From a virus, in IMG/VR virus record IMGVR_UViG_3300046820_003928, positions 1 to 64,000 of that record: 64,000 nt of DNA. The stretch is one strand, 5' to 3'. Of the stretch, positions 10,392-60,699 are shown piece by piece (the first letter of the stretch is position 1; every line of letters starts with the position of its first letter). A program made the position numbers and the translations under genes. The notes beneath the pieces were generated by a model that did no database searches, had not been told where the DNA came from, and saw only the letters and a list, made by a program, of their open reading frames with translations.

Positions 10392-10874
10392 TCAGCTACT
10401 TATCTTCCTTACTAAAATTCCTGCGCTTCTCAAGAGATCAATTCCTCCAAAGTCGCGATATTCTTCTCTAAAGACGACTTCTTTTATGCCAGAATTGATG
10501 ATTGACTTGGCACACATTCTGCATGGACTCATACTGACATACATGATTTTTTTCTTAGGATTATTGTAATCAAGCTTGATAAGAGCATTTACCTCTGCAT
10601 GGATAAATCCAGATTCTCCGGGCATGTCAGATTCTCTCTGATTCTTTCCCCCCGAATGATCTCCGTTATAGCCAAGAGCAAGAAGCTGAGTGTTGTCGCT
10701 TGTTACAACAATGGCAGCAACTTTATGCACTGAATCTGCAGACCTCTTTTCGATAGTCTTGACAACATCCATCCAGACTTGATCCCAGGTTGGCCTTTGA
10801 TCTTGTGTGTGTCTTAGATCATCAAGGAAATCATTTCTCACTGGCAGCACCCTCAATGTCAAATATCGTCTCAA
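10392..10874 (-). CDS. dCMP deaminase
   Basis: LGYNG, HAEVNAL and SPCRMC zinc-deaminase motifs; true start probably GTG at 10841. Confidence 0.93.
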   Translation of the reverse strand: MRRYLTLRVLPVRNDFLDDLRHTQDQRPTWDQVWMDVVKTIEKRSADSVHKVAAIVVTSDNTQLLALGYNGDHSGGKNQRESDMPGESGFIHAEVNALIKLDYNNPKKKIMYVSMSPCRMCAKSIINSGIKEVVFREEYRDFGGIDLLRSAGILVRKISS

Positions 10875-11718
10875 TGCTTATTCCGGCCGGAAGTGAAAAA
10901 CCAGCAGCCTTTCTGTGACCTCCTCCGCCGAACTTCTTGGCAATTTCACTAACGTCAGAATCGTCGTGGTGAGCTCTAAGGCTTACCTTGACCTGACTTG
11001 TCTCGTGATCCCAATACCAGATAACAGCGAAATCGCATTTAGGGGAAAGCGCGGCGCCGATTTCAGACATCCAATGTGGTGAATTTACAACAAGAACATC
11101 ATTTCCATCAAGCTTCCTTGAAGATGCATGCTTCGCGATCTTCGAGATAACAGTCTTGGAGTAAGCGAGGATGTAAGCACCTCTTTCCTGAGCACTGTCA
11201 ACTGCTGAGTCATCGAGGTACTTGTCGAACTCTTCGAAGTCAAATGGAACCATGTCGAACGCAGCGGAAAACTCCTTGGAGTAGGGAATCTGCCATTTCC
11301 AGAGATCACGATCCTCGATAAACTTGATCATTCGAGGTGCTTCCTTGCCTGGATGGAAGAAGTTCCAAGAGAGCATCGCACCGCTGTGGGTCATGTCAAA
11401 TCGAGTGCAGGTAATGTCATGCAGTTCCACCATCGCAGATTTGTGATGATCGATAACAAGAAATCCCTTTGCCTCTTTCATCAACCGCTTTGTTGTCGCA
11501 TTGTCATACGAGAAATCTAGAATGACAACATTTTTTCCAGCGACATCCGGCGGGGGTTCACCATACTTTGCAGCGTGGTATTCTGCACGATCACCAAGCA
11601 GCTTCCAGGCAGCATAAGCAGCCCCAAATCCGTCTGTACAATTTGCATGATAGATCACAAGATCGACACTACCGGGATCCATTAGAAGTCCTGCACACGA
11701 TTGTGATGATTCCAGCAT
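10831..11718 (-). CDS. DHH/DHHA1-family phosphoesterase
   Basis: YHANCTDG, LDFS, IDHH, SLR, GGGGHRKAAG. Confidence 0.9.
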   Translation of the reverse strand: MLESSQSCAGLLMDPGSVDLVIYHANCTDGFGAAYAAWKLLGDRAEYHAAKYGEPPPDVAGKNVVILDFSYDNATTKRLMKEAKGFLVIDHHKSAMVELHDITCTRFDMTHSGAMLSWNFFHPGKEAPRMIKFIEDRDLWKWQIPYSKEFSAAFDMVPFDFEEFDKYLDDSAVDSAQERGAYILAYSKTVISKIAKHASSRKLDGNDVLVVNSPHWMSEIGAALSPKCDFAVIWYWDHETSQVKVSLRAHHDDSDVSEIAKKFGGGGHRKAAGFSLPAGISIETIFDIEGAASEK

Positions 11719-12254
11719 CTTGGCTCATATAGCTCAGAACCTCCAACAGCAATTTCTCCGAGATTTTCAACTTTTCGTGTTGTGAAATAAGCATCAGAAC
11801 CGCAAGTTGTGCAAACTGCAGAGCACTTCTCAATGTGTGTCGCCCAGGGTAGAATCTCCTTGATCTCATCAAAGGCATTACAGGATGCTGACATCTCAAT
11901 TGAGGCGACAACAACTGTAAATCCAGATCGATACAAAGAGATCAGAGCATCAGAAACACCGTCGATCATAAATGCCTCGTCGACAGCAATGACATCTGGG
12001 CGCTGGTCTTGGTTTGTTACAACCCTTAGGATATCTTTTCCACTAGAGACATTGATAGCTGGAATCTTTCCACCATTGTGAGTACAGATCTCGCTTGTCT
12101 CATACCTGTCATCCATTCTAGGCTTAAACGCCAGAATTTTCAGACCTTTGTATCTAAACCTGTCAACAAGCGCAATCAGCCTGGTAGTCTTTGACCCCAT
12201 CATAGGCCCTGTAAAAACGTAGAAGGCTGGGTTCATCATGTTAGATTCCACCAT
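11682..12254 (-). CDS. tdk: Thymidine kinase (type II/TK1-like)
   Basis: GPMMGSKTT P-loop, DDRY, VDEAFM, CxxC, IAVGGSELYEPRC. Confidence 0.95.
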   Translation of the reverse strand: MVESNMMNPAFYVFTGPMMGSKTTRLIALVDRFRYKGLKILAFKPRMDDRYETSEICTHNGGKIPAINVSSGKDILRVVTNQDQRPDVIAVDEAFMIDGVSDALISLYRSGFTVVVASIEMSASCNAFDEIKEILPWATHIEKCSAVCTTCGSDAYFTTRKVENLGEIAVGGSELYEPRCWNHHNRVQDF

Positions 12255-13249
12255 TTTAGGGTCTTCTCCAATCCGTCCCTGAAAGAGACCTTGGGTACAT
12301 ATCCGAAATCTCTTTGTGCAGCGCTGTAATCTCCTAGAGTATGCATAACGTCTCCTGCGCGCCAGGGCGCATCGACTATATTAATGCCTTCGAAACGATT
12401 TTTTAAGTAATCGATAATTTCCCTATTTGTGATTCTTTCACCGCAACAAACGTTGTATGATTCACCTGAGAACTTTTTATCAGAAAATGCTGCAAGAATA
12501 TTTGCGTCAACAATGTTATCGACATGACACATATCTCGAGACTGACTTCCGTCTCCATCGGACCTTAGAGGTCTACCATCGTGAATAGCATGGCACCAAG
12601 CAGAGACTGCAGTTGAATAGGGCGAATCTCCAAGTTGCCCCTGACCAAATACGTTGAAGTATCTTAAAAAGACAATGTCAAGATCGTAAAGACTGCTAAA
12701 CAACTTTCCAAACTCTTCTAGGCAAGACTTCTGAAGGGCGTATGGAGAGACGGGATTCTTTGGTACTGATTCGTGAGTTGGCAGAACTTCGGAAGCTCCA
12801 TAGACTGCTGATGACGAAGCTGTAACTACACGGCGCGTATTTCCCGAACATGCAACAAGGAGATGAAGAGACTTCATCAGATTTTCGTCTGTTGTCTCTA
12901 TTGGGTTTTCAACCGAGTAAGAGACACGTGGCATTGCTGCCTGGTGGAAGACTACATCATACATCTTGCTTTGGATTCTTGAAAGTACGACTGGAGATGC
13001 AAAATCGTTCTCGATGACCCACACCTGATCAGCGGGTCGATTTTCAATTTGGGACTCGAAAATGTTGACAAGGTTACCGATAAACGTTTTAAAATTCAAA
13101 CCCTCAAGATTTTCTAGAGACCCATTTGACATGTTGTCAACTACGTCGACTGTGTGGCCGTTTTCAACGAGCTTCTTGACAAGGTTGGACCCAATAAAAC
13201 CGGCTCCTCCGGTTACAAGGATCCGTGAAAAAGGCAAAATCTCAGACAT
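12236..13249 (-). CDS. NAD-dependent NDP-sugar epimerase/dehydratase (extended SDR)
   Basis: VTGGAGFIGS, ASSSAVYG, YALQK (YxxxK), LRYFNVFG, GDGSQSRD. Confidence 0.95.
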   Translation of the reverse strand: MSEILPFSRILVTGGAGFIGSNLVKKLVENGHTVDVVDNMSNGSLENLEGLNFKTFIGNLVNIFESQIENRPADQVWVIENDFASPVVLSRIQSKMYDVVFHQAAMPRVSYSVENPIETTDENLMKSLHLLVACSGNTRRVVTASSSAVYGASEVLPTHESVPKNPVSPYALQKSCLEEFGKLFSSLYDLDIVFLRYFNVFGQGQLGDSPYSTAVSAWCHAIHDGRPLRSDGDGSQSRDMCHVDNIVDANILAAFSDKKFSGESYNVCCGERITNREIIDYLKNRFEGINIVDAPWRAGDVMHTLGDYSAAQRDFGYVPKVSFRDGLEKTLKWWNLT

Positions 13250-13283: not shown

Positions 13284-14156
13284 TTATGGAACAATGTGAG
13301 CGCAATTTAACTTGACTCTCATTTTAATGTTCCTGTTCTTGAGACCGGCAAGAATCTGGGTCTTGAATCCAAGATGGACAAGGGCATCAAGATCGATCTT
13401 TAGATTTTTTGGAATATTTGTTGATCTGCATACAACGTCAAGGACATCCTGTTCATCTCGATGGATAAATCTAACGTAAGAGATGCAGCTTGAGTTCGCT
13501 GTTACAAACCTGCGAGAAGCAGCAGATTGACCACTTGCCATCTCATTCACAATCCTGTTCATTAGATCTGACTCAATTGAAGAGTAATACTCCTCTTCTC
13601 CAGAGACGCTGAGTGAATCGGGACCGGGATCATCGACAGGGGAAAGGATCACCTCAAACTGTGTATCAATTGATTCGTTGCGTCCCGTTGTGGAAAGAGA
13701 CATCTCAGCATACTCGGCGATCCGCTTTGTTGTAACTGCCTCTCTGCTTGTGATAACATCGCGCACCGCTTCGGGATCTGGTAGTTCTCGACAAACAATT
13801 ACAGAGGGGTGATACCGCAGCGCCATCGCGTGACTGTTGAACTCCTCCCACGTTCTCCGTAGTGTATCAAGGTTGTGCATCTCATCACCTCTGGATGCAA
13901 ACCGCGCTGTTACAGTGTTCCACCCGGGGGCAAGAAGAACGACAACGTTGTTTAGATCGTCAAGAAATCTATTTAAGTCTCCCTTTTCATGGCTATCATC
14001 ACGTCCAAAAATCTTGGGATAAACAGCGCGGCTAAGATGACCTCGATCTCTAATGTCATATCGAAAATCTGTTGCCTTGTGGAAATCACGATAGAATGTA
14101 GTCTTCCCAGAGAGATCGCAGCCCTCAAGAACAACCTGCTTCGTTACCAGTCTCAT
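13284..14156 (-). CDS. Fusion of a dNMP (thymidylate) kinase-like domain and a thymidylate-synthase-fold domain
   Basis: N-terminal LEGCDLSGKTT P-loop and DRGHLS; C-terminal SRR...C..F...RSTN......D...AHI aligns with the TS core. Start ATG at 14156 overlaps the dnaE stop (ATGA). Confidence 0.75.
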   Translation of the reverse strand: MRLVTKQVVLEGCDLSGKTTFYRDFHKATDFRYDIRDRGHLSRAVYPKIFGRDDSHEKGDLNRFLDDLNNVVVLLAPGWNTVTARFASRGDEMHNLDTLRRTWEEFNSHAMALRYHPSVIVCRELPDPEAVRDVITSREAVTTKRIAEYAEMSLSTTGRNESIDTQFEVILSPVDDPGPDSLSVSGEEEYYSSIESDLMNRIVNEMASGQSAASRRFVTANSSCISYVRFIHRDEQDVLDVVCRSTNIPKNLKIDLDALVHLGFKTQILAGLKNRNIKMRVKLNCAHIVP

Positions 14157-17100
14157 ACTTGAATCTTCCTCATCTTGTTGTTGTTTGTGGAGCATCCCCA
14201 GTTTGCATCTTTGCTAACTTCAGCAATGTAGATCTCATAGTGATTGAGCGGCATTTCACCCCAGATTCTCAGATTCACCATTTGCATCTCATTGTCGCAT
14301 ACCTGGGCACGAATAAAACCCTTGCCATTCTTTGTCTTCTTTACAGTAAAGTCCTGAACCAAGAACCAGCAAATCTGCCTTTCTCCATCTCCAATCGCAG
14401 TGATGGGATCGACCTGGGCCTTTTTGATCTTAGCAATAATGTCATCTGGAAACATTAGATCTTCACGAGAAGTTGACGTTAGGTCAAAGTACATCTTAAG
14501 CTTCTCTGATCGTGTCCAGTCAGGTAGATCTTCAAACTGCTCAAGTAGATTCCAGAACGTCACTTCGGGCTTGATTCCTTCCTTCTGCATCTTCTTGAGC
14601 TGTGTTTTCGTGTACCCAAATCTGCCCCGTCGAAGAACATCATAATTCTTTCCCTCTGTCATGGTGGCAAGAAGCTGTCGATGGTTCTTGACCCGACCCG
14701 ATCTAAAGTCTTCAAGCGAGCTAAGTGCTTCGACGCTACAGAGTGAAGTGAGAGTCGTCTTGTTCACCTTTGAATGACGCCAGGATCCATCAGCAAGATA
14801 GAGCATCTGCTCAATCGACTTATAGGGTCGATTATCCATGATTTCCTTGACAGCAGTTTCACCAACGCCCTTGATCGATGTCAAGGGAGGAACAAAACCC
14901 TGTAGCTCCCGACTAAACATCCAAACATCTCCAGAGCTGTTGATGTCAGGTGGAAAGATCTTGAATCCCTGCTCCTTGATCTCAGCAGCTACCTTCGCGA
15001 GTCCTTCTGGGTTGCTATTCTCAGACTGGAGGCATGTGGCAAGCCACTCTTCTTCATAGTGCTTGTGCAGCCAGGCTGCGTAGTAAGAATCGACTGCATA
15101 TGAGACAGAGTGTGACTTGTTGAACCCGTATGCGGAGAAGGCCTCAATTGTTTCGTAGAGCTCCGTTGCGTCCTTCACCGACATTCCATTGAGATTGACA
15201 GCACCGTCTACGAATCTCTTACGAAGATCCTCACGCTCTTTTGCCTTCTTTTCGTTCATGTCAAGCGACTTCTTGACCAGCGTCTTGCGCATCTGGTCAG
15301 ATTCTCCCGGATTAAATCCAGCAAGCTTCTGGGCCAACAACATGAATTGCTCCTGGTAGACGACGAATCCGTGTGTCGGTCCCAGGATGTCTTTCAGAAT
15401 TGGATGCTTATAGGTTGCTGTTCCCTTGTTCTTGACATCGACGTATTTCTTGTGAACTCCTGCAGCAAGCGGACCAGGACGGTAGATTGCTGTGATGGCA
15501 GAGAGATCTTCGATTGACGTGGGCTTCGCCTCGAGGCAGAACTTTCTAGCTCCGCTATTCGTGAACTGGAAGATCTGGGTAAATCTACCAGAATGATAGA
15601 CGTGCTTCCACACATCTTGATCATCGGGTTCGTTATATCGAATGTTGAGATGCTTATCAAAGAACTCTTTGACCTGCGCAAAGCTAGGGTTTTGGATGCC
15701 AAAGCGAGTCTGCAGCAACATTCGAATGCAGTCTTCGACCATCTTTAGAAGCGACAGACCGAGGAAGTCAAACTTGAGGAATCCGTTCTCCTCAAGATGT
15801 CGGAAGTTCATGCCTTCAGACCACGGCGTCTGCAACTCACCTCGGACTGAGATGACAGGCATATGATCTTCAAGGCGTGGGCAGATAAGAACGCCGCCGG
15901 CATGGCGACCAATCGAACGTGTCTCCATGAAGAGTGACTGAACCTGATCACAAAGGTCAGGATACTTCTCCATGAAGATCTTGTACTTCTCAGAATATTT
16001 CATGCAGTCTGCATGAGAAAGAACGTATGTGCTCTTTTCCTCGTGGTCTCCGAGCGCTTTGTGCATGACATCATCCTGAAGAGGTCCTGTGACTTCATTT
16101 ACCTCTTCGAATGGAATCCCATGAAACTTAGCAATGTCCTTGATCAGAGACTTCAGCTTTAGGGTGTTGAAGTTTGAGACAGGAACAACAGAGTCTTCTC
16201 CAAATAGATTACGTGCCTCATCAATTAGAACGTCTCGGTCACCGACGTCTGTGTCGATATCCGGCCACGCGACCTTGTGACGACCGAGGAATCTCTCCCA
16301 CAGGAGATCGTACTTGATCGGATCGACCGATGTGATTCCGAGGACGTAATTGACCAGAGATCCGGCGCCAGATCCTCGACCTGGTCCGATCAGCGTGCGA
16401 TGCTGTGCTCGATCAAAGACAAAATAAAGTGTGAGGAAGTAGTTCTCAAACTTTAGATACTTGATGTCATCAAGTTCCATCTTAAGACGTTCAACGTACT
16501 CGGGCTTTGTATGAAGACCGAGCTCAACAAGACCCTTCTTGCACATCTCAAGAAGCTGATTGAACGCTGTTTGTTCGGGCTTGTTAAAGCTTGGGAGCTT
16601 AGCAGAAGTATCGAAGGTGATTTCCTCACACTTTTCCCACGCAATATCGTATGTTCGCTCAATTGAGTCGCGAACTAGTTCCTCAGTTCCGCTGTAGAAT
16701 TCAAACTTGTCCTTATGGGCAAGATACTCATCCCACATCTGGCGCGCGTTCTTTGGGTACAACTCACACTTTAGATCTTCAAAAGCAGGCAACGTCTGCT
16801 TCTGCATATCATCAGAGCGACCTCCCATTCTACCCAGCTTCTTGTAAAGCTCACGAGCTTGCCATGCGTTCGGACTATAATAGTGAGAGTCAGCAGTGGC
16901 AATTGTCTTGATACCAGTTCGACCCGCAAGCGTGATTAGATGCTTGTTTGTTGTATGCTGGATGTCAAGACGATTGAACTGAAGCTCTAGGAAAAAGTTA
17001 TCAATTCCAACTGCATCAACAAACCGATCAGTGTGATTCTGGAGCTCGCGCTGGATCTGTTCGTGAGACTTCTTGAGTGCCTCACCCCGGATGGCAGTAG

Positions 17101-21210: not shown

Positions 21211-21211
21211 G

Positions 21212-21679: not shown

Positions 21680-22163
21680 GCCCTGGTGTGGTTGCGTAAT
21701 TTCTTATGTCTTTAAGCTTGTGTGGTCGAGATCCAGATTTTCTTCTCTTTTCTAGCTCTCCTGCCATCTGGAGCTCCTGGATCTCTTTTGCTTTTTTTAT
21801 TTCAGAATCAAAAGATGAGCTTGTCTGTGAAAACTTTCCAAGGCTAAAATCCAAAGCCTCGATAAATCCAGTCAGCCTTTTGATTTCATCGTTTGTTTGC
21901 TGGATAACTGCAGATATTCTCTGATCAAGCTCGAGAATGTCTTTCTCGTATGATTCAGAGATTATTCCAGCAGCTTTATTCTTCTTGATAATCTCTTGCA
22001 AAGACAATCGAATTCCGCTTGAAAATTCAGATATGTATGAAACTCTCAGAGCGAGAGAGTCTCTTCTCTGCTTTGCAGCGATCAGGGGTTGTGAAATCTC
22101 AGCAGAAATCGATGTCAGCGCACTTTCTAATGCTTTTTTTACAATATCTTCTGTCATAGTCAA
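21636..22163 (-). CDS. Coiled-coil hypothetical protein
   Basis: 175 aa; GATAGTTA motif immediately upstream. Confidence 0.7.
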   Translation of the reverse strand: MTMTEDIVKKALESALTSISAEISQPLIAAKQRRDSLALRVSYISEFSSGIRLSLQEIIKKNKAAGIISESYEKDILELDQRISAVIQQTNDEIKRLTGFIEALDFSLGKFSQTSSSFDSEIKKAKEIQELQMAGELEKRRKSGSRPHKLKDIRNYATTPGLAEGSYDADDNQDS

Positions 22164-22182
22164 TTGTAACTTAACTATCTAG

Positions 22183-22218
22183 AAAATAAAAGGGGCGGAG
22201 CCCCGAAGAGCTCCGCCC
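22183..22218 (-). terminator. Intrinsic terminator with cUUCGg tetraloop
   Basis: GGGCGGAGCTC-TTCG-GGGCTCCGCCC followed by CTTTTATTTT. Confidence 0.9.
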
Positions 22219-22252
22219 AAAGAATCACGGGATTAGACCGTGATAGCCCAAA

Positions 22253-24193
22253 CTAGGCCTTCTGGACCACGACCACATCACCCTCTTGGAGGGCAAACTT
22301 GAATGCAAGGGTCTTGGCGACTTCGTCGAGTGTGAAGTCGGAATCGTCCATCATGAGCTGTCCGTTGACGAAGATCATCGCATTGGCTGCGCTGAGCTCA
22401 TCCAGGAAGTTCGATGTCAACGAGGCCTGCATTGCAGCGTCAGCAGCAAATCCGCCGGCACCAACAGTGTGGGTTGCCTTCTTGGACGAAGACAGGGCTG
22501 TTGACCTGAGCTCGTTGAGGGCGCCCATGATTGTGGTGGCAGTGAATCCGACGAGTGAGGCGGTGCCGAGGGAGATTGACTTGCCTGCGTCGTACTCGAA
22601 GACGATGGAATCGCCTGCGAGTCCGGCGTGGAGGACAAGACCTTCGCCGCTGGAATCAACGTAGTTGTCGGAGCCATCGAGCTTGACCTGCGCGAACTGG
22701 GGCGAAGCACCAGTGTGGATGTCCTGGGGAAGGCTGAGAACTACGTTACCGAAGGCGCCTGCAGCAAGCTGGACCTGATTGACAGTTCCAGTGACGAAGT
22801 CCATGATTCCAGCAGAGACCAGGAGGCCCGAGGCTGCATTGGTCTTCACCAGACGGTTTGCAGTGAGGTCACCCAGCACAAGGCTGTCGAACTCTACGTC
22901 TGCATCGGTGTGGATGGACTGGGGCAGGCTGAGGGTGATGGTTCCATCTGCATCATCTGCAACGCTGACCTGGTTGGCAGTTCCAGCAACCCAGTTTGCA
23001 AGGTTGGCAACAGAAACTGTGTTCTTGTCTGCGTCAGAAGCCATCAAGCGGGTAGCTGTGAGGCTTGAGAACTTCGCCTTGACGAACTCAGGTGAGGCGC
23101 CAGCGTGAATGTCCTGGGGTCCAGACAGAGTTACTGTGCCATTTGCATTTCCAGTTACAGAAACGCGGTTGAGTGTGCCAGTGACGTAGTCAGCAGCAGC
23201 TGCGTTGATCAGCTTGCCAGAGGGATCGTGCTGGACGAGACGGATGTTGCCCTGGAGGTTGCCGAAGCTTCCCGAGGGGGCGAACATCTGGTGTGAGAAC
23301 TCCCAGCGAGCGTTGGCCTGGCTCCAGGTGAGCCTCTTGTCGCCTGCATCAGACGAAAGAGCGATACCTGCGCCGTTAAGGGACGCACCTGATGCACCAG
23401 AGGCGATGACGATGAGCGTGTCTTCGACAGCAAGCTCAGTGGTGTTCAGGATGGTCTTCGTTCCCTGGACGATGAAGTTACCCATGACTGTGAGGTCATC
23501 AGCAACGACAACGTCTGCACTGAAGGTTGATCCGTTGACTGTGAGAACGCTTGAGCCGTAGGTCATGTTCGCATCGTCGACGAGAGCGCCATCAGCGCCA
23601 GCGTAGACAACGCGAGTTGCAGTCAGGTCAGAGACCTTGGCAGAGGGGACAATCAGGTCAGATCCGTTGAAGGCGAGCGAAGCAGTGCCGACGAGGGCGC
23701 CAGAGGCACCAGCGTAGACAATGTGCGTAGCTGTAAGATCGGAAACCTTGGCAGAAGCCATGGTAAGATCTGTGCCATCGAAGACGAGGTTTGCGCTGTC
23801 AACGAGCTCACCAGCGGCGCCAGCGTAGACAACACGACCTGACGTGAGGTCCTTGACGTTGAGGGAGGCCGCTGTGGCCTGGCCGTCAACTTTGAATGTG
23901 CCTGCAACTGTGCCTGAACCGACGATTGCGATGTCCTTCTTGATTGAAAGCTCGGTTGCACCAGAGGCGTCAATGTGAGCAGCAAGGTCAACGATCTGGA
24001 CCTTGGCATACTCGCCTGCGATCTCTTCCTTGTAGTCAGCAGCACCGATGATGTCCTTGACCTGACCACGAAGGGCTTCGAGGTCAATAGCGAGAGAGCC
24101 AAGTCCGTCCTCGGACTTGATCTGCTCTGCACGCATCTTTGTCATCGAGCCAGTGGGCTGGAGGGATAGAGCCTGATAATTTTTGTTAGCCAT
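22253..24193 (-). CDS. Repeat-rich fibre or decoration-like virion protein
   Basis: 646 aa, A/G/S/T/V-rich, internal repeats, visibly C-ending codon bias, strong GGAG RBS. Confidence 0.75.
   Translation of the reverse strand: MANKNYQALSLQPTGSMTKMRAEQIKSEDGLGSLAIDLEALRGQVKDIIGAADYKEEIAGEYAKVQIVDLAAHIDASGATELSIKKDIAIVGSGTVAGTFKVDGQATAASLNVKDLTSGRVVYAGAAGELVDSANLVFDGTDLTMASAKVSDLTATHIVYAGASGALVGTASLAFNGSDLIVPSAKVSDLTATRVVYAGADGALVDDANMTYGSSVLTVNGSTFSADVVVADDLTVMGNFIVQGTKTILNTTELAVEDTLIVIASGASGASLNGAGIALSSDAGDKRLTWSQANARWEFSHQMFAPSGSFGNLQGNIRLVQHDPSGKLINAAAADYVTGTLNRVSVTGNANGTVTLSGPQDIHAGASPEFVKAKFSSLTATRLMASDADKNTVSVANLANWVAGTANQVSVADDADGTITLSLPQSIHTDADVEFDSLVLGDLTANRLVKTNAASGLLVSAGIMDFVTGTVNQVQLAAGAFGNVVLSLPQDIHTGASPQFAQVKLDGSDNYVDSSGEGLVLHAGLAGDSIVFEYDAGKSISLGTASLVGFTATTIMGALNELRSTALSSSKKATHTVGAGGFAADAAMQASLTSNFLDELSAANAMIFVNGQLMMDDSDFTLDEVAKTLAFKFALQEGDVVVVQKA
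23570..23880 (-). repeat. Three tandem 37-aa (111-bp) repeats within the fibre gene
   Basis: AGCGTAGACAA recurs at about 23600, 23711 and 23822; peptide unit (S)AKVSDLTAT.VVYAGA.GALV. Confidence 0.85.
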
Positions 24194-24334
24194 TTTAGTT
24201 TTCTCCAGTTAATGAAAAGCTCACGCTATGACGTCACGCATGAGTCCAAACTCTAACTAATCTATAGAAACTAAATGAACTGTAACTCGGAAAATCTTCC
24301 CGACAAGCTAATTATGCTTTCAAAAAAATATTAT

Positions 24335-24571
24335 TCAATTCTTTTTAGAGTAGATCATCTTTTTTAGAGACTTAAGATGGGCATCAAAAGTACTGAATTC
24401 TCCTGATAGAAACTCCAATAGCAAATCATCGCACCTGGAGTCCGGATCATCAAACACAAATTGAAACTTTCCTGTTGCTCCCTTGGATGCACTTATCATC
24501 TTAATACCGCGCATCTTGAGATATGCTGCAACTGGCAACTCAGAAGTCGTGTATGTCACATTGTTTTCCAT
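24335..24571 (-). CDS. Small hypothetical protein (DUF5659-like)
   Basis: YTTSELPVAAYL...G...FQFVF pattern; family call is tentative. Confidence 0.55.
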   Translation of the reverse strand: MENNVTYTTSELPVAAYLKMRGIKMISASKGATGKFQFVFDDPDSRCDDLLLEFLSGEFSTFDAHLKSLKKMIYSKKN

Positions 24572-24600
24572 TATACCCTAAATATCAATCAGGCTGTTAT

Positions 24601-25659
24601 TTAAGACACATAGGAGTATGTTGCCAAAAAAATATCTTCAGAATTGACGAAGGGTGCCAGGAACTGGACGCTAGATCCTGAAAGGATGTAATCAGTATTT
24701 TGAGTTAAAAGTTGGCCATTCATGAAGAGCATCAGAGACTGTGCAGGATTCGGGACCTGATTCAAGCTGACTCCAAGGGATCCCGATACTGAAACAATCG
24801 AGGCAGACTCATTAAGGACAAACTGCTTGACTGTTACTGACTTCTGGTACATACAGATCAAGATGTCGTTGGGATCCGGAGAGAACCCAGTGAAACTAAT
24901 TGTCCGACCAGAAACAGAAAAATCTCGATTGCGTCCCTGTGTAAGAAGCTGTCCGTTCAGCCACATCATGACGCCAGCGGTATTCGTAGGATCCGAGCTT
25001 AGTGTAAATTCTCGATTAGATCCATCAATCAGCCCAATAGGTGTCTCATTCAAGACTAGCTCAGTAAGCACTCCTGGTGAAGCAGCTATCGTTATCTGGC
25101 CAGTAGATCCCGTTGAAATTGAAATTCCAGGCCCAGCAGCAAGGTAAGAAGAACCATCAACAAGTCTTGTAAGAGAACCTGTTATTCCTTCGTGGAATAT
25201 CGAAGGAGACATAACTTCAAGAGGAGATCCTCCAGTTAGAACACCCTCTATCAGTACGTTTCCATCAAAGACTACGTTACCGCCGACAACAAGATTAGAG
25301 CTGCTGGCAAGAGAATCCAAAGTAAGAACGTCGCTAGATAGAGATATCTCGATTGATCCGTTTGATCCAGTTGAGATATCTAGTCCACTCATTCCGAGGA
25401 TATAAGGGCTCCCGTCTTCAAGAGACTGAAGAGACCCAGTGAGTCCACTTGAAAACAAGACGGGGCCGGTAAAAACCGACCCAGTTAGAGCTGCTACAAC
25501 ATTAAAATCATTTTGAACTACAAGGAGATTTCCAATTTGTTCTCTTAGTATTCCACCCTGTGTAGAAAGTTGAAGCTCATTTTCAAAAACACCTCCTGAC
25601 CCCGAATATACAATAACTGGAGAAAGGAGGTGTTCATCTACTACTCTATTTGCTGGCAT
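24601..25659 (-). CDS. Fibre-like virion protein with internal duplications
   Basis: Two GxTGSL..L.DGS.Y...G..ISTGS.G.I.I units and two NGQLLTQ..D[FY] units. Confidence 0.7.
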   Translation of the reverse strand: MPANRVVDEHLLSPVIVYSGSGGVFENELQLSTQGGILREQIGNLLVVQNDFNVVAALTGSVFTGPVLFSSGLTGSLQSLEDGSPYILGMSGLDISTGSNGSIEISLSSDVLTLDSLASSSNLVVGGNVVFDGNVLIEGVLTGGSPLEVMSPSIFHEGITGSLTRLVDGSSYLAAGPGISISTGSTGQITIAASPGVLTELVLNETPIGLIDGSNREFTLSSDPTNTAGVMMWLNGQLLTQGRNRDFSVSGRTISFTGFSPDPNDILICMYQKSVTVKQFVLNESASIVSVSGSLGVSLNQVPNPAQSLMLFMNGQLLTQNTDYILSGSSVQFLAPFVNSEDIFLATYSYVS

Positions 25660-25702: not shown

Positions 25703-26653
25703 TTAAATGCCTCGAGAATTCTTGTAATTGGTAACAATCTGATCAATGTCACCAAGAATCTCATTCCAGAGCTCACGGAAGTGAGGAACTCCACCATCTG
25801 TTCCATTCATGTCATCACGAGTAGCCTGATAGATTGTATCATTTGGATGATAGGTAAGATGCTTCTCGCTGTCCTCGTCGGGCCAATAGAGATTTGTTCC
25901 GGTTCCGTTACGGAACGTCTTGATGTAATGCCAGGCAGGCTCCTTAAGATTGATCGCCACGTGAGCCTCAGGAAAAACCTTGAGAATCTCACGAGCCATG
26001 AGGGCTGCAATGATGTTGTCCTCTTCGGGCTGGATCTGCTTGTCCTGACGCTGCTTGATGAATCCAAAAGCATCGCGGATGTTCATGCGCATGTAATAGA
26101 AAGTTTCTAGGCACTTAGGCAGGACGTGTCGAGCATCCATAAGACTGATCTGCTTGGAATCAACCATGTCAACATAGAGCTGCTTCGCTTCCTTGACGTG
26201 ACGTTTCCACCGATCGTAGAACTCAGGGCTGTTCTGGATAGATCCCGGTACAAGACTGCGCTCGTGAGAAAGCCAGCGATCACCTGTGCACTGTGCAGCA
26301 AAAGAGCCTGCACGATGACGGATGAGGTGAGTTACTGTCTGCGTATCGATACCTCCAACAAGGAAGGTAAGACCAATAAGCTCCATCGCTGCAGGAAGCG
26401 CACGACCTGCAAAGACGTCTTCAAGGGTCTTGCTAAGATCAGCATCTGTTGCTTCTGCATATGGAACATGCTTGTCTGCCCAGGTAGACTTAACGAAGCA
26501 ATAAACAGCCTGTCGAATGGTCTTTGGATCTGGACTATCTACAAGCTCGATCTTTAGTGCATCGAGGCTATTAACGAACTCAGTTGTTGGCTTCTCGTCA
26601 AAACGAATTGCCATGGGAAGGGTGATTGGCTTAAGATCAAGGCTTTGTGGCAA
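25703..26653 (-). CDS. Divergent ThyX-like flavoprotein (paralogue)
   Basis: HLIRHRAGSFAAQCTGDR (RHR-x7-S motif with C in place of S), DARHVLP, late R..KQIQPE. Confidence 0.8.
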   Translation of the reverse strand: MPQSLDLKPITLPMAIRFDEKPTTEFVNSLDALKIELVDSPDPKTIRQAVYCFVKSTWADKHVPYAEATDADLSKTLEDVFAGRALPAAMELIGLTFLVGGIDTQTVTHLIRHRAGSFAAQCTGDRWLSHERSLVPGSIQNSPEFYDRWKRHVKEAKQLYVDMVDSKQISLMDARHVLPKCLETFYYMRMNIRDAFGFIKQRQDKQIQPEEDNIIAALMAREILKVFPEAHVAINLKEPAWHYIKTFRNGTGTNLYWPDEDSEKHLTYHPNDTIYQATRDDMNGTDGGVPHFRELWNEILGDIDQIVTNYKNSRGI

Positions 26654-26661
26654 GTTTTCTC

Positions 26662-27579
26662 CTATGAAAGATTATCGATGATTTGTAGCAGGTTTTCAAC
26701 CAAGATTACACCTTTTTGCTGATGTAGAGCAGTGTTGTATGGCTGAATGGGACTAAATGTCTTGAGACCATGCGAGGCAAATTCAGCAGCATGCTTAGGG
26801 GAGTCATCAACACAAAATGCCACATGTCCAGAGAATTTAGACTGAATGATCCATCTAAACTTCTCGCCGCTGAATGCTAGATCGTCAAAATAGATGCTGG
26901 ATTCCTGTAACCATCTTGCAGTATCAAAAAGACAAAGTGGATTATCTGCAGGTCGAGCAGTAAGAATCTGAACCCAGTAGCCCATGTCTCGAAGAGCATG
27001 TGTGAATCTTACTGCATGATGATCGACTCCCAGACTTCTAAGCTTGCGCTCAGAGATGAAATCCTTGAATAGCTGTTCAGTGTTGTGCCCAAGCTCTTGT
27101 GCAGCTGATGCTGCATAATACTCAGGACAATCATAGGAGATCGTTACACCTTTTGTCTCAGACAGCCAATCAAAAAATCCCTTTCGAAACTCGGCAATCA
27201 CATCATCCATGTCAAGGATAACAACAGGTCGACCATCCCACTGACGCTGAGCTAGCGTGTGCCTAAAGTGAAGATACGCATCTTTGTCATCAAATGCCTC
27301 CTTAAACTCTTCCTGATCGATCTTCCAGACATTCATGATTGCCATCAAGTATCTGAGGACATCAACGCTCTCATAGAGGATCTTTGTCCTGTCTGGCATC
27401 TTTCTATCTGAATGATGCTCCTTAAAGTTAATTGAAGATATCAGATCTGAGACCTCTGAATGAAGTTCAAGAGCAAATGATTTGGTCATCTGCTCTCGAT
27501 CTGTATCTGTGAACTTTGTGCTATCGAAGAAGAGATCAGAAAAAGACTTCTGTCTCTCTAGCATGTCCTTTAGCTTCAC
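26662..27579 (-). CDS. All-alpha NTP pyrophosphatase (MazG/dUTPase-like) fused to a HAD 5'-nucleotidase
   Basis: N-terminal ELHSEVSDL...YESVDVLRY; C-terminal ILDMDDVI, ILTARP, K, VDDSP (HAD motifs I-IV). Confidence 0.8.
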   Translation of the reverse strand: MKLKDMLERQKSFSDLFFDSTKFTDTDREQMTKSFALELHSEVSDLISSINFKEHHSDRKMPDRTKILYESVDVLRYLMAIMNVWKIDQEEFKEAFDDKDAYLHFRHTLAQRQWDGRPVVILDMDDVIAEFRKGFFDWLSETKGVTISYDCPEYYAASAAQELGHNTEQLFKDFISERKLRSLGVDHHAVRFTHALRDMGYWVQILTARPADNPLCLFDTARWLQESSIYFDDLAFSGEKFRWIIQSKFSGHVAFCVDDSPKHAAEFASHGLKTFSPIQPYNTALHQQKGVILVENLLQIIDNLS

Positions 27580-27588
27580 TAATCCCTC

Positions 27589-27963
27589 TTAGTACTTGGA
27601 TCTAATCCTATCATGAATGATTCGATCTTTACTAACGTAAGCATCAAAAAGCTCATCGGGTGTCACACCCATAATGATTAGAAGAGAAATAAAATAATTA
27701 AAAGAATCAACCATCTCTTCTTTGAATGCTGATCTGTCAAATTCCTTGATCTCCGTCTGTCTGTGTGACTTTGCATTCTTTAGCTCTTGAACCGCCTCAA
27801 AGACCTCTTCAACTCCCCTGAGGGCGAGATCTCTAAGGTGTTGCTGCGTTTGCTTGTCTGTAAGATCGATTGGCATCTCAGGATAGACGTCTGGAACATG
27901 AGCTTGCAAAGCCCTCATAAAGGACTGTCTAAGCTCAAACATCTGGTCGAGCTTATCCTTCAA
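27589..27963 (-). CDS. Dimeric all-alpha dUTPase/dCTPase-like pyrophosphatase
   Basis: EEVFEA...K.H...KEEMVDSFNYF...Y.SK..IIHDR. Confidence 0.8.
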   Translation of the reverse strand: MKDKLDQMFELRQSFMRALQAHVPDVYPEMPIDLTDKQTQQHLRDLALRGVEEVFEAVQELKNAKSHRQTEIKEFDRSAFKEEMVDSFNYFISLLIIMGVTPDELFDAYVSKDRIIHDRIRSKY

Positions 27964-27964
27964 T

Positions 27965-28201
27965 TTATTCCTCTAGCTCAACGGGTGGAGACATTGCTGC
28001 AATTGCAGCGATCATCTTGTTGATGTTCTGATCGAAGCTAGCGAGGTACTCAGGGTCTGGAGAAAGAGTTCCGCCACCATCGACAACGACTCGCAGTGTC
28101 CTTAGATTGTCAACAATATCAGTTCCTGAAAGGATTGCAATCTGTAGAAGTCTTGCAATCTGTCCAATTGTGTCGTCCGAAAGCTTGTATGAATTTGCCA
28201 T
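27965..28201 (-). CDS. Hypothetical protein (78 aa)
   Basis: Tiles the operon. Confidence 0.75.
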   Translation of the reverse strand: MANSYKLSDDTIGQIARLLQIAILSGTDIVDNLRTLRVVVDGGGTLSPDPEYLASFDQNINKMIAAIAAMSPPVELEE

Positions 28202-28212: not shown

Positions 28213-29010
28213 TTATTTTTGAATTTCTGGTACCCAGAACGTTGTCCGCCCGTCTTCAGTCGTCTCTCTCTTGATCTCTCTTCCGTCTGGGTCCTTGATT
28301 TGATTGTAGACTGCGAAACGTCTACTGTAATCTCCCTTTTTCCCATCAAATCCAGAAAACGTGTAGATAGTAGCCCCTCCAGTCTCATATGACTTACGGA
28401 TCACTGTCTTTATAACCCTGTTAAGAGTTTCTAGTTCTTTTCTAGATAGATCTAATGCATTTCTATAGGGATTAATCTTACTGAAGTAAAGGCACTCTGA
28501 TTTAAGATAGTTTCCTACTCCAGAGATAATAGACTGATCCATAAGAGTTGCAGCGATAGTCTTTTTACTTTTTCTAATTCTCTTCTCAAAGACTTCATCT
28601 TCTACATCTTCAGATAGCATATCAGGACCAAGAGAAGACAGTTTAGAAGAAAGAAGACTTTTTTGCGTGACCAGTTTTATGGTCCCAAAATTTCTCGTAT
28701 CGTTGAAATAGATCTCTCCTCCGCCGTCAAGACAAAATCGAACTCTACTGTGCTTTGTCTGGTTCTCAGACCAACCACCTGTCATTCCAAGAGTATTGAA
28801 GATGTGTAAATCGTCTTCCAAAGAAACAAAGATAAACTTTCCCTTACAGCCAATCTCAGTCACTTTAACAGGGAGCTTTAGATTCTCCCATCCATCAGGA
28901 TTCTTCTTTGTGTATCTCCCACTCAGAAGTTGAGCATTGACAATTGTTCGACCCAGCATCTTGCTGCTAAGGCCATCAGTTACGACTTTCGTCTCTGGTC
29001 CCTCTGGCAA
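28213..29010 (-). CDS. mutM: Fpg/Nei-family DNA glycosylase/AP lyase, zincless finger
   Basis: N-terminal PEGPE, KGKF, LGMTG, DTRNFG, LGPD, H2TH motif LMDQ..ISGVGNY; GRTTFW without zinc cysteines. Confidence 0.93.
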   Translation of the reverse strand: MPEGPETKVVTDGLSSKMLGRTIVNAQLLSGRYTKKNPDGWENLKLPVKVTEIGCKGKFIFVSLEDDLHIFNTLGMTGGWSENQTKHSRVRFCLDGGGEIYFNDTRNFGTIKLVTQKSLLSSKLSSLGPDMLSEDVEDEVFEKRIRKSKKTIAATLMDQSIISGVGNYLKSECLYFSKINPYRNALDLSRKELETLNRVIKTVIRKSYETGGATIYTFSGFDGKKGDYSRRFAVYNQIKDPDGREIKRETTEDGRTTFWVPEIQK

Positions 29011-29011
29011 T

Positions 29012-29716
29012 TTAAATTCTCCCTTTGTTTTTGTGAAATTTTTTTAATGATTCTGATATTTTCAGCTTTTGTTCATCGGTCATTTTGTTTCCCTGATTTG
29101 AAGAATGAGATGGTCCTCCTCTTCGAATCATCCCCAAAATAACGTGATGGCCGGTGTCAAAAAGCAATCCTATTTTAGATGCTGACATTCCAGATTCGTA
29201 CAATTCTTTAATTCGCAAATAGTCTTCATATAAAATCTTTTTGGGCTCCCTTCTCTTGCTATAGAACTCGGATCCTGCTAGTTCAAGACCCTTATTCCAC
29301 GGTATTCTGCCTTTTGCAGCATTAGTGACATTTTCTCTCCACTTAGGAGGAAGTCCTGTGTCACCGTAGACATCTTTCATTCTCTCTCTTATCTTTTCTT
29401 TTGTCTCATCTGTGTGCTTGTCGCCTGCACCCATTCCTCCGGTATCATTGCTTGCATTGTAGAAATCTGATGAATTTTTGCAATCAAATTTTAGAAGCCA
29501 TTCTTTTTCAAGATCAATTGCTTCTCTCAGCGATGCTGCATCAGGAAGCTCTTGTAAGATCTCGCGTTTAAAGCTTTCTTTTCCATACTTCTTGATTGCT
29601 TGCTTGAGAAAGACACCAGATCCAAGATACCCAGAATCCCACCTTTCATCTTTGGAACATCTACCAACGTACTTTTTTCCATTGATAAGATTTGTTGTCA
29701 TGTATATTCTGTGCAT
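29012..29716 (-). mobile_element. Free-standing GIY-YIG homing endonuclease with NUMOD3-like motifs
   Basis: IYMTTNLINGKKYVG, YLGSG, FYN; HTDETKEKI and MTDEQKLKISES. Confidence 0.85.
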
Positions 29717-29756: not shown

Positions 29757-30170
29757 CTATACTTTGTTAATCCATCGCCAGTAATTCTTTAACGCACCAT
29801 CTTTGGGCTCGGGAATTCCTGACCAATTATGCTTACAGAAGATCTCATACGCAGCAGATGCGTACTCACCAATCCCGTGAAGAGACTTTGGATCCGATTT
29901 GTCCCACGAAAGATAGTCAGTGGACATTTTGATCAAAGTCTTTGCTCGTCTTTCTCCAAGCCCTAAGTCTTTGACAAGCTCATGAACCTGATCAAAGTCT
30001 GCAGTTGATGCAGACCCTGGATCTGGCCAACACTCAAAGAATTTCCACATTGTTGGCTCTGCATCAACCCTTCGGGTCAGATTGCAGAAGATACAAACAA
30101 CAAAGACACGCCAGGGATCTTCCTGGACGTGTTCTTGTATGAGATTGTATGGCGATCGTGGTGCGTACAT
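29757..30170 (-). CDS. MBD4-like HhH DNA glycosylase (catalytic domain only)
   Basis: SPYNLIQE..DPW...CIFCNLT, LGL..RA, LHGIGEYA, PKD..L..Y. Confidence 0.85.
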   Translation of the reverse strand: MYAPRSPYNLIQEHVQEDPWRVFVVCIFCNLTRRVDAEPTMWKFFECWPDPGSASTADFDQVHELVKDLGLGERRAKTLIKMSTDYLSWDKSDPKSLHGIGEYASAAYEIFCKHNWSGIPEPKDGALKNYWRWINKV

Positions 30171-30832: not shown

Positions 30833-31465
30833 TTAATATCCAAACGCTGAGATCGTTTCTTTGAATGGAGATCCTGGAATTTCTCTAACTTGTCGCAGCA
30901 TCTCTTCTGCGATCCAGCAGATTTCACGTTGAGCATCTGGCTTCATGCGAAGGCCAAGAAAGTGATTGAAAGATCGCCAGTTGAACATGACGTCCATTGT
31001 GATTTGATTTCCATACGGGAGATAGAATCGAGCTGATTCTTTTGCCCGCTTCCGACTCATGCCTCCTGCGACTAACCTCTCAAGTGTATCGTGGTAGCGC
31101 ATAATTGCATCTTCCATGAAAGCAATGTACTTTGCTCTCTCCTCAAGGGGCCAATCGCTTGGAACGTAGTACTTGTCATCCTTCAGCTCCTTATAGCGAG
31201 CTGACTCACCATTTATCGAAACACCAATTCGATGCTTGAGAAGATGGATATGGCTGGCACAATCAACTGTAACAAGGAAATGAAGACTTGACTTCTCAAA
31301 GGGAGTCTCGTGTCCATTCTCAGCCAGCATTTTAAGAAGAGATGAAATTCTCGACCTCTTGTCATCATTTAGATCTCTGCTTGTACTCGTCCAAGCAGAC
31401 AATGCATGAATCTCATCAGATCCGTAATAGCCAACTAGTTCAACTTTGTTTTCTTGAAATGACAT
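30833..31465 (-). CDS. thyX: Flavin-dependent thymidylate synthase
   Basis: GHETPFE, KHR-x8-SARY, KESARFYLP, NWRS, LR...AQREI. Confidence 0.95.
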   Translation of the reverse strand: MSFQENKVELVGYYGSDEIHALSAWTSTSRDLNDDKRSRISSLLKMLAENGHETPFEKSSLHFLVTVDCASHIHLLKHRIGVSINGESARYKELKDDKYYVPSDWPLEERAKYIAFMEDAIMRYHDTLERLVAGGMSRKRAKESARFYLPYGNQITMDVMFNWRSFNHFLGLRMKPDAQREICWIAEEMLRQVREIPGSPFKETISAFGY

Positions 31466-31673
31466 TTCTTAAACTCTCTCTGATTTTTCTATCCCAAATT
31501 ATTTCAAAGAACCACTGGAGAGCTGTAAGAAACAATCCTGATACAAGTACCATGATTGTCGATTTTACAGCATCTCCGGTGAAAAGGTAAGTAATCCAGG
31601 TTCCAAATAGCATTGAAAATATTCGCCAAACAATTGTTTTAATGAAAAGCTCAATGCTATCTGTCTTCATCAT
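31440..31673 (-). CDS. Small membrane protein (DUF2061-like)
   Basis: KTIVWRI...Y.FTG...FEIIW with two hydrophobic helices. Confidence 0.65.
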   Translation of the reverse strand: MMKTDSIELFIKTIVWRIFSMLFGTWITYLFTGDAVKSTIMVLVSGLFLTALQWFFEIIWDRKIRESLRNVISRKQS

Positions 31674-57607: not shown

Positions 57608-57633
57608 TTATTTGCTCCTAGACGTAAGTATTC

Positions 57634-60645: not shown

Positions 60646-60699
60646 TTTCACTCCAAGTGCATTCTTAGCAAATACATATCACGGAAAGCAATGAAGTGA

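Follow-up and report, generated by a model that had tools for sequence, protein, structure and literature searches.

The 64-kb window analyzed here, i.e., the first 64,000 nucleotides of the IMG/VR virus record IMGVR_UViG_3300046820_003928, carries, besides a canonical gene for the flavin-dependent thymidylate synthase ThyX, a second gene for a divergent, 316-residue ThyX-like protein that is the hub of a module of nucleotide-metabolism genes. On balance, and with some reserve, we favor the view that this ThyX-like protein is a neofunctionalized ThyX-fold flavoenzyme that makes a non-canonical pyrimidine nucleotide and is accompanied by enzymes that edit the nucleotide pool. This view builds on the fold of the protein, on the residues that its family has kept and replaced, on the size and viral range of that family, on the synteny of its genes, and on its co-occurrence with a canonical ThyX.

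The window is the start of a 140-kb viral contig, which we regard as a fragment of a jumbo myovirus genome, since CheckV estimated a completeness of 39%. The encoded proteins include sheath and baseplate components, a gp32-like single-stranded DNA-binding protein, RecA, DnaB, DnaE, and an intein-bearing ribonucleotide reductase. No close cultured relative of the contig was found, and a blastn search with the gene cassette described below gave no match among cultured phages. The ThyX-like gene belongs to a block of four tightly packed minus-strand genes encoding proteins of 78, 124, 305, and 316 residues, with gaps of 1, 9, and 8 nucleotides. The last three of these had been delineated as adjacent genes in an initial annotation of the window, and all of them are present as open reading frames in the positions listed in Table 1. 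We scanned the block with Pfam, PHROG, and NCBIfam, and generated AlphaFold models of the 316- and 305-residue proteins.

The ThyX-like protein and its family

The 316-residue protein matched the Pfam family Thy1 (PF02511) with 71.6 bits over residues 47-229 and reached 46.8 bits with the thyX equivalog TIGR02170, which is under the cut-off of 87.9 bits. In the AlphaFold2 model (mean pLDDT 96.8), both terminal extensions were modeled with high confidence. Foldseek assigned the model to ThyX structures (1o26, 3gwc, and others) with a probability of 1.00, a TMt of 0.64-0.76, and about 20% identity. The highest TMt, 0.76, was found with Thermotoga maritima ThyX, and PolB (4p5b) ranked fourth among the structural matches. 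The extensions comprise about 45 residues at the N-terminus and about 85 residues at the C-terminus, and both are conserved, which agrees with the initial description of a ThyX-like protein with a long C-terminal extension. A phmmer search of the PDB with the ThyX-like protein, the 305-residue fusion protein, and the 124-residue protein returned nothing meaningful, and relatives were found only by profiles and structure.

For the comparison of active-site residues, T. maritima numbering was transferred via the family profile, whose best PDB match is 3g4c, the S88C mutant of T. maritima ThyX, and via a set of 17 canonical ThyX sequences aligned with MAFFT. The T. maritima residues R78-H79-R80 are retained as R112-H113-R114, R147 as R175, N163 as N191, R165 as R193, and R174 as R202. 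In 82 diverse family members, with identities as low as 22%, neither R112 nor R202 varies, and R114 and R175 do so only rarely. Of the ThyX motif RHR-x7/8-S-x-R-Y, RHR is kept but then followed by C-[TS]-G-D throughout the family. The protein reads R112-H113-R114-AGSFAAQ-C122-TGD-R126-W127 in this region, exactly as initially annotated, with S88-G-R90-Y91 replaced by C122-T-G-D125, the arginine displaced by two residues, and a variable W, F, or D after it. The equivalent of Ser88 differs by alignment and is either Cys122 or Gly124 (T. maritima versus Corynebacterium glutamicum ThyX alignment). In addition, N169 is changed to glycine. A further exchange concerns His53 of the motif GHxSxxEH, which we take to be the folate-stacking residue from the folate-complex structures of the 4gt9 series. 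It is replaced by Leu86 (in RALPAAME), and this leucine is present in all aligned family members, compared with a histidine in all 17 canonical sequences. The altered active site that had been proposed from the motif was thus borne out, but the loss of the folate-stacking histidine had been missed.

Altogether, S88, R90, Y91, and His53 are all substituted throughout the ThyX-like family. S88, R90, and Y91 have been reported to speed the flavin carbinolamine's consumption in ThyX, and R174 activates dUMP by favoring N3 deprotonation (PMC8316439). As the arginine and asparagine set is kept, whereas His53 and S88/R90/Y91 are replaced, the flavin and nucleotide sites look intact, and the side responsible for folate binding and one-carbon transfer looks rebuilt. 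Among 18 sequences, down to 46% identity, 72 columns are invariant, including the new Q-C-T-G-D-R loop, and the motifs GTNLYWP and DTIYQ of the C-terminal extension are invariant in these sequences as well. Because this loop and these extension motifs do not vary, the conservation pattern appears typical of an active enzyme and not of a decaying copy. Judged by its residues, the protein is probably a flavin-dependent enzyme that acts on a pyrimidine nucleoside monophosphate.

Database searches revealed 1272 clusters of the family at E<1e-5 (90% collection), nearly all of them metagenomic and with lengths of 314-333 residues, and 483 representatives remained at 50% clustering. The C-[TS]-G-D signature was retained even where RHR is changed to RxR. 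Atlas clusters of the family are 86-97% viral, and a search of 185,579 prokaryotic species genomes gave a single match, which lies on a contig of a metagenome-assembled genome. By sequence relationship, the 316-residue protein therefore falls into a sister family of ThyX that is large and restricted essentially to viruses. Among uncultured marine phages represented by 100-300 kb contigs, this family is common. Geobacillus phage GR1 (OK896991), whose protein is 45.5% identical over the full length, was the sole cultured carrier found, and our literature search found no paper that characterizes the family.

Canonical ThyX, gene neighborhood, and candidate partner proteins

The canonical ThyX lies about 4 kb from the paralogue, as had been noted initially, and it is a clear case, with 123.9 bits for Thy1 and 101.6 bits for TIGR02170, above the cut-off. 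It matched ThyX structures in the PDB with E-values down to 5e-12 and retains GHETPFE and KHR-x8-S-A-R-Y. Ten of 19 related contigs (104-237 kb, all incomplete) carry both a canonical ThyX and a ThyX-like gene. ThyA is absent from all 19, and its Pfam family PF00303 was unmatched in these relatives, in the present contig, and in GR1. The canonical copies of the relatives belong to two types that are mutually only about 23% identical. When mapped onto a maximum-likelihood tree built from the ThyX-like proteins, these two types intermingle, and well-supported branches force at least three changes. The canonical enzyme was therefore repeatedly gained or swapped while the ThyX-like gene stayed. 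Because canonical ThyX of two unrelated types was acquired or exchanged beside a constant ThyX-like gene, the two enzymes look non-redundant, and the assumption that both do the same job is hard to square with the tree.

The synteny was analyzed by tblastn of the window proteins against 86 loci that carry the ThyX-like family (Table 1). The order across these loci is Fpg, orf78, the 124-residue pyrophosphohydrolase, the MazG-HAD fusion, ThyX-like, and a protein of the nucleoside 2-deoxyribosyltransferase (NDT) family, followed by DnaE, the kinase with a miniature thymidylate synthase (TS) domain, the epimerase, thymidine kinase (TK), DHH, and dCMP deaminase. Conservation of the neighborhood, which had been suggested as a check, was thus found for the block order. 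The linkage of the ThyX-like gene to pyrophosphatase, nucleotidase, and NDT genes was also seen across unrelated phage backbones. In L090 (50% identity), the order is dUTPase_2, NDT, a YfbR-type HD nucleotidase, and ThyX-like. In L104, a PolA phage of about 40 kb with about 25% identity, NDT, dUTPase_2, and ThyX-like are followed by a TylF-type methyltransferase, a UDG-like protein, and PolA. L091 has a nucleotide-sugar transferase two genes downstream of the ThyX-like gene. In GR1, genes for NDT, HD, glycosyltransferase, and nitroreductase proteins precede the ThyX-like gene, and a gene for a 151-residue mini-TS protein comes after it. The nucleotidase slot is hence filled by two unrelated folds, HAD-NT5C and HD-YfbR.

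Table 1. Positions of the module genes and of other nucleotide- and DNA-related genes in the window, with the evidence for each and its occurrence in related loci
Feature	Coordinates	Strand	Evidence	Related loci
ThyX-like flavoenzyme paralogue (putative), 316 aa, module hub	25703..26653	-	Thy1, motif, AlphaFold2, Foldseek	
MazG/dUTPase_2-like four-helix domain (1-110) fused to NT5C-type HAD 5'(3')-deoxyribonucleotidase (117-305), 305 aa	26662..27579	-	Pfam, PHROG, AlphaFold2, Foldseek	76/86
Stand-alone all-alpha NTP pyrophosphohydrolase, 124 aa	27589..27963	-	phrog_12184 and acidic motif	81/86, directly upstream of the fusion gene
orf78, conserved 78-aa protein heading the block	27965..28201	-	synteny	74/86, directly upstream of the 124-aa gene
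Canonical ThyX, 210 aa, likely dTMP synthase	30833..31465	-	Thy1, TIGR02170, PDB ThyX matches	
NDT-family protein, 147 aa	18914..19357	-	PF05014 2.7e-16	79/86
orf303, YorR-like P-loop (deoxy)nucleotide kinase with miniature TS-fold domain, directly after dnaE	13284..14195	-	profile matches 2axp, 1b49	
dCMP deaminase (dUMP supply)	10392..10874	-	PF00383 1.2e-20	
TK	11682..12254	-	PF00265 2.6e-35	
NAD-dependent nucleotide-sugar epimerase/dehydratase	12236..13249	-	PF01370 5.3e-47; phrog_540 2.9e-65	27, syntenic with the kinase-miniTS gene
Fpg/Nei-type DNA glycosylase, upstream of the block	28213..29010	-	H2TH 2.1e-22, Fapy_DNA_glyco 2.5e-19	45/86
Small HhH-GPD DNA glycosylase	29757..30170	-	PF00730 3.4e-5, 24.6 bits (cut-off 26.2)	40/86

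The 124-residue protein matched phrog_12184 ("nucleotide pyrophosphohydrolase") at 4.8e-20 and scored 21.7 bits with dUTPase_2, just below the cut-off of 22.9 bits, and its PDB profile matches were insignificant (5mil 0.43, 1yvw 0.56). The acidic motif EExxE...EExxD is kept in 64 orthologues, where E52-E53-x-x-E56 and E82-E83-x-x-D86 show little or no variation, with E53, E56, E82, E83, and D86 being invariant. The PHROG match and this metal-binding motif agree with the proposed all-alpha NTP pyrophosphatase. In the fusion protein, which gave PHROG matches of 8e-14 to 3e-8, residues 2-97 scored 23.8 bits with dUTPase_2 (cut-off 22.9), and residues 117-272 scored 23.4 bits with NT5C (PF06941), slightly below the cut-off of 24.8 bits. 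Its AlphaFold2 model (pLDDT 92.7) consists of a four-helix bundle and a HAD domain, and deoxyribonucleotidases were the best Foldseek matches (3bwv with a TMt of 0.81, human mdN 1q92 and 4mwo with about 0.75). HAD motif I is DMDDV at positions 123-127, with DxDDV in 61 of 61 orthologues, and all of motifs I-IV are present, with D123, D125, T207, K240, D258, and D259 being invariant. In the MazG-like domain, E42 is nearly invariant and D73 is invariant, while E38 is alanine in the orthologue consensus. As the first glutamate of the acidic tetrad is missing in most orthologues, a pyrophosphatase activity of the N-terminal domain is less certain. The initially assigned fusion and its HAD type thus hold, and its designation as a second pyrophosphatase is weaker. 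We also considered a dimeric dUTPase that has been split, with one part in the 124-residue protein (Pfam profile positions 105-162) and the other in the N-terminal fusion domain (positions 1-94). This was rejected because the genes do not have the order that a split would give, because each part has its own acidic motif, and because both occur as separate units in 76-81 of the 86 loci.

The NDT-family protein is related to PDB 6evs (9e-10) and retains the catalytic glutamate in DMGSIWEAG. Its gene directly follows the ThyX-like gene in most relatives. In the window, the two are separated by a structural-looking gene block (19.4-25.7 kb). This inserted block (19400-25659, minus strand) codes for fibre-like proteins of 646 and 352 residues, a DnaJ-domain protein, and small open reading frames, and between 22 and 24 kb the local GC content climbs to 0.55. 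L018, a relative with 91% identity, has the ThyX-like and NDT genes next to each other. As to orf78, which heads the block, neither Pfam nor PHROG gave a match.

A further potential partner is orf303. The N-terminal half of its profile matched the YorR-type kinase 2axp (2.6e-10), and its second half aligned best to the T4 dCMP hydroxymethylase gp42 (1b49, 0.0025, gp42 residues 145-217). Cys148 of gp42 corresponds to C237, RSNDV to RSTDV (R257-S258), and Asp179 to D268, and these orf303 residues (C237, R257-S258, and D268) are invariant. Small proteins encoded after the ThyX-like gene in GR1, L092, L106, and L108 are mutually homologous. One of them matches positions 101-209 of the Pfam thymidylate synthase family (2e-7), and their profile matches ThyA structures (9e-4). 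They are also related to the C-terminal 120 residues of orf303 (hhalign probability 95%, E 3.8e-8), and a hidden Markov model of this orf303 region, built without GR1, found the 151-residue GR1 protein at 3e-8. According to these profile matches, a miniature dCMP-hydroxymethylase-like domain travels with the ThyX-like family and is fused to a kinase in the lineage of the window. A complex prediction with two copies of the ThyX-like protein and the mini-TS domain of orf303 scored 0.00 relative to a mark of 0.32, which is no evidence either way.

At 113-125 kb of the contig, five glycosyltransferase genes (two GT1, three GT2) are clustered (113396-114987, 122484-124521). Glycosyltransferase family 8, which was seen in the relative L005, is absent from this genome fragment. 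The glycosyltransferases and the nucleotide-sugar epimerase are compatible with a later sugar decoration of DNA, although they are far from specific for it. The cluster is reminiscent of blocks of sugar genes in SP-15 and Carin-5, but it is not specific to DNA modification.

Some flanking genes of distant members deserve mention. In GR1 (L001), a nitroreductase/dihydropteridine-reductase-like flavoprotein is encoded immediately upstream of the ThyX-like gene (7286-7885, plus strand) and is a candidate reductase partner. In L106, which is a small phage and a distant member, genes for a cytidylyltransferase/FAD-synthetase-like nucleotidyltransferase (6541-7035, plus strand) and an FkbM-type methyltransferase (7208-7990, plus strand) precede the ThyX-like gene. 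Together with the TylF-type O-methyltransferase of L104, these may represent tailoring steps or flavin supply.

The predicted product and alternative explanations

From the above observations, we infer the following pathway. The ThyX-like enzyme would bind flavin adenine dinucleotide (FAD) as well as a pyrimidine nucleoside 5'-monophosphate and, with its one-carbon-transfer machinery rebuilt, would yield a C5-modified pyrimidine deoxynucleotide other than thymidylate (dTMP). The kinase-miniTS protein would handle the modified deoxynucleoside monophosphate (dNMP). After phosphorylation, the product would be incorporated into the phage DNA, where it would probably replace the canonical base only in part and might subsequently be glycosylated. 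The 124-residue pyrophosphatase would convert a deoxynucleoside triphosphate (dUTP, dCTP, or dTTP) to the dNMP, and the MazG-like/NT5C fusion together with the NDT-family enzyme would break down the competing canonical pyrimidine nucleotide to the nucleoside or base. The canonical ThyX, dCMP deaminase, and TK would keep ordinary dTMP supplied.

As to the identity of the base, two tentative candidates can be named, while all other products taken together are about as likely as these two combined. The product may be a 5-substituted uracil nucleotide, with 5-hydroxymethyl-dUMP as the simplest case; the arginine that is invariant at the R174 position, nucleotidases of the dTMP/dUMP type, the UDG-like neighbor in L104, and the parallel to SP-15 described below point to uracil. 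A 5-substituted cytosine nucleotide is a similarly doubtful candidate, to which the aspartate of the mini-TS domain at the gp42 D179 position, the Cys/Asp pair, the T4-like gene set of deaminase, TK, canonical synthase, all-alpha pyrophosphatase, and dNMP kinase, and the small HhH-GPD glycosylase point. The invariant Cys/Asp pair, which lies on the substrate loop of the ThyX-like family, recalls, by analogy, the nucleophile/acid pair that is needed for cytosine C5 chemistry. A more speculative and quite improbable extension would be a two-part system of an undescribed kind, in which the ThyX-like flavoenzyme and the mini dCMP-hydroxymethylase-like protein cooperate in a flavin-dependent synthesis of a modified pyrimidine. 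Having lost the folate-stacking histidine and gained the Cys/Asp pair, the flavoenzyme would either form the one-carbon unit or act as its carrier, or it would reverse ThyX chemistry on dTMP. Its partner with the stripped TS fold would be responsible for binding and activating a nucleotide of the cytosine type. The joint product would be, for example, 5-hydroxymethyl-dCMP or a pyrimidine with a longer C5 substituent, which the fused kinase would phosphorylate and which would then be glycosylated in the DNA of these abundant jumbo phages of the sea.

Several observations weigh against a modified pyrimidine with pool editing. The clues to the base, uracil or cytosine, disagree. In GR1, whose 79-kb genome is complete, no gene other than the ThyX-like one matched Thy1 or ThyA, and this phage either makes dTMP with the ThyX-like enzyme or relies on its host. 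A canonical ThyX is also lacking in 9 of the 19 long contigs, although all of these are only 32-87% complete. If thymidine nucleotides were the target of the editing, TK and a dTMP-type nucleotidase would constitute a futile cycle. The first acidic residue, a glutamate, of the MazG-like domain in the fusion is absent in most orthologues, and glycosyltransferases and epimerases of large phages often serve other ends. Finally, the replication module of the marine lineage is wholly syntenic, so that most of the 86 loci are not independent, and only about four independent contexts exist. As most loci share this one module, the weight of the synteny rests on the distant members in other backbones. 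The initially proposed combination of different chemistry and pool editing has gained from the large, conserved, virus-only family, its rewired residues, its persistence beside canonical ThyX, and its linkage to pyrophosphatase, nucleotidase, and NDT genes in unrelated backbones, whereas GR1, with its sole thymidylate-synthase-type gene, fits either dTMP synthesis or reliance on the host.

This leads to the alternative that the ThyX-like protein truly synthesizes dTMP and represents a ThyX subfamily that is divergent and specific to phages, perhaps with another reductant or one-carbon donor or for other conditions. The neighbors would then supply dUMP in the ordinary way and do house-cleaning, with the canonical ThyX as a partly redundant second source. 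Besides GR1, which has no other thymidylate-synthase-type gene, the Thy1 fold, the retained flavin and nucleotide arginines, including the dUMP-activating R174 position, and the dUTPase-like and dCMP deaminase genes, which are normal partners of thymidylate synthases, agree with this. The S88C mutant of T. maritima ThyX (3g4c), the best PDB match of the family profile, probably remains active, which points in the same direction. We nevertheless regard it as rather unlikely, as His53 and the residues S88, R90, and Y91 (PMC8316439) are substituted family-wide, as the thyX equivalog score is 46.8 bits versus a cut-off of 87.9 bits, and as genomes with a ThyX-like gene in place repeatedly acquired or exchanged a canonical ThyX of one of two unrelated types. 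Moreover, a dTMP operon needs neither a dNMP nucleotidase nor an NDT, and yet the linkage to both persists, even with a non-orthologous swap of the nucleotidase.

It is also conceivable, though improbable in our opinion, that the module serves the salvage or re-balancing of deoxynucleosides and not DNA modification. Nucleotides from host DNA (dNTP or dNMP) would be converted to nucleosides by the MazG-HAD fusion, undergo base exchange by NDT, and be re-phosphorylated by TK and the kinase, while the ThyX-like protein would act on an intermediate, for example a ribo- or deoxyuridylate like PolB, or would serve a non-DNA end. The NDT-family protein is indeed closest to a true nucleoside deoxyribosyltransferase (6evs) with its catalytic glutamate kept, TK and a YorR-like kinase are present, and PolB, with 4p5b among the top structural matches, shows that a shift in sugar specificity is possible in ThyX paralogues. 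However, a salvage pathway leaves the rebuilt one-carbon site, the mini dCMP-hydroxymethylase-like partner, and the linkage to methyltransferase, UDG-like, and glycosyltransferase genes in distant members unexplained, and phages usually reuse dNMPs directly. The loss of several canonical catalytic residues would even fit a non-catalytic protein, such as a nucleotide- or flavin-binding regulator or a scaffold of a phage dNTP-synthesis complex. With 72 invariant columns in 18 sequences, a new invariant loop, and the flavin and substrate arginines kept, such a role is highly improbable.

Comparison with known systems and further genes

With canonical ThyX (also FDTS, EC 2.1.1.148; TM0449 and M. 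tuberculosis ThyX), the ThyX-like protein shares the fold, RHR, and the R147, N163, R165, and R174 positions. It differs in its identity of only about 20%, its sub-cut-off score, the changes at His53, S-x-R-Y, and N169, the extra extensions, its virus-only distribution, and its co-occurrence with a canonical enzyme. A precedent for a neofunctionalized ThyX is PolB of the polyoxin pathway in Streptomyces cacaoi (4p5a/4p5b), a C5-methylase of UMP and dUMP that is among the best structural matches of the ThyX-like protein. PolB is a ThyX paralogue that exists beside a housekeeping ThyX and has been turned to another end (PMC5954106). At the sequence level, PolB was matched by the canonical ThyX of the window and not by the ThyX-like protein. 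PolB still methylates and belongs to an antibiotic cluster, whereas the ThyX-like protein has its transfer residues replaced and is encoded in a phage replication module.

To our knowledge, the ThyA fold is common to all enzymes for which the synthesis of a C5-modified pyrimidine nucleotide destined for phage DNA has been demonstrated, i.e., dCMP and dUMP hydroxymethylases and dCMP methylase. A ThyX-fold enzyme has been hypothesized in such a base-making role once, in the case of gp130 of Bacillus phage SP-15. SP-15 has two Thy1 genes. The role of thymidylate synthase is assigned to gp9, whereas gp130, which is divergent, was hypothesized to be a hydroxymethyl-dUMP synthase, and part of the thymine in its DNA is replaced by glycosylated 5-(dihydroxypentyl)uracil (PMC5977210). 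The initial statement that no characterized example is known therefore holds for the biochemistry, but the idea as such had already been published as a hypothesis (PMC5977210). Comparable proteins are the "thymidylate synthase homologues" of T-hypermodified, SP15-like phages (YerA41, Carin-5, RP13, RHph), and a 5-substituted uracil is known to take the place of part of T in such DNA (PMC5977210, PMC12686479). SP-15 resembles our case in having two Thy1-fold genes in one phage and an NDT-family gene (gp127) near the divergent copy, two genes upstream of gp130, and its gp9 gene adjoins a deoxynucleoside kinase gene. The ThyX of RHph_Y65 also has neither the His53 nor the S-x-R-Y signature. In contrast, gp130 has 413 residues and no RHR, its assignment in SP-15 is itself only hypothesized, and SP15-like phages replicate with a UDG-PolA fusion, whereas the present lineage uses DnaE. 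As gp130 was rejected as an orthologue of the ThyX-like family (hhalign probability 2.2%), the SP-15 parallel is an analogy only. Since replacement can be partial, as in SP-15, the presence of canonical ThyX and TK no longer conflicts with a thymine-type modification.

The logic of two paralogous one-carbon transferases, one making dTMP and the other a modified pyrimidine, is the same as in T4. The T4 set of gp42, gp56 dCTPase, gp1 dNMP kinase, cd, td, tk, and glucosyltransferases is mirrored by the pyrophosphatase, kinase, deaminase, TK, and glycosyltransferases of the present phage. T4 differs in that gp42 is a full-length enzyme of the ThyA family, whereas no full-length ThyA enzyme is present here and the candidate base-maker has the ThyX fold. 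The TS-like part of orf303 has only about 120 residues, with the Cys and Asp of gp42 kept, and the nucleotidase and NDT genes have no counterparts in T4. Similarities also exist to the dTMP phosphatases of phages with dU-DNA, as PF06941/mdN (PBS1 Dtm) is the type to which the fusion's HAD half belongs and the L090 module has a PF12917 HD enzyme (the Dtm family of DSS3_VP1) in the place of the nucleotidase. Nucleotidases of both families were shown to be dTMP phosphatases in the thymine-excluding phages PBS1 and DSS3_VP1 (PMC12697855). These phages have no thymidylate synthase and replace all T by U, unlike the present phage with its canonical ThyX and TK.

A neofunctionalized ThyX, as in PolB, and the logic of a nucleotide-pool module are thus known in outline, and the chemistry could be new. 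If a modified pyrimidine is indeed made, a sizeable share of ocean jumbo-phage DNA would carry an unrecognized modification, with consequences for the evasion of restriction and CRISPR, for sequencing bias in metagenomes, and for flavin enzymology.

Some further genes of the window may be of interest. A GIY-YIG/NUMOD3 homing-endonuclease-like gene (29012-29716, minus strand) lies between the Fpg and HhH-GPD genes and is probably a mobile insertion, as it is present in only 1 of the 86 related loci. Beside the ribonucleotide reductase, a type II-like glutamine synthetase of 338 residues (31670-32686, minus strand), which was found in only about 10 of the 86 loci, and a ClpP-like protease (32694-33296, minus strand) are encoded. 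Two tandem, very long tail-sheath-like genes (54731-60651, minus strand) code for proteins of 958 and 1005 residues, both of which contain Phage_sheath_1 and sheath C-terminal domains.

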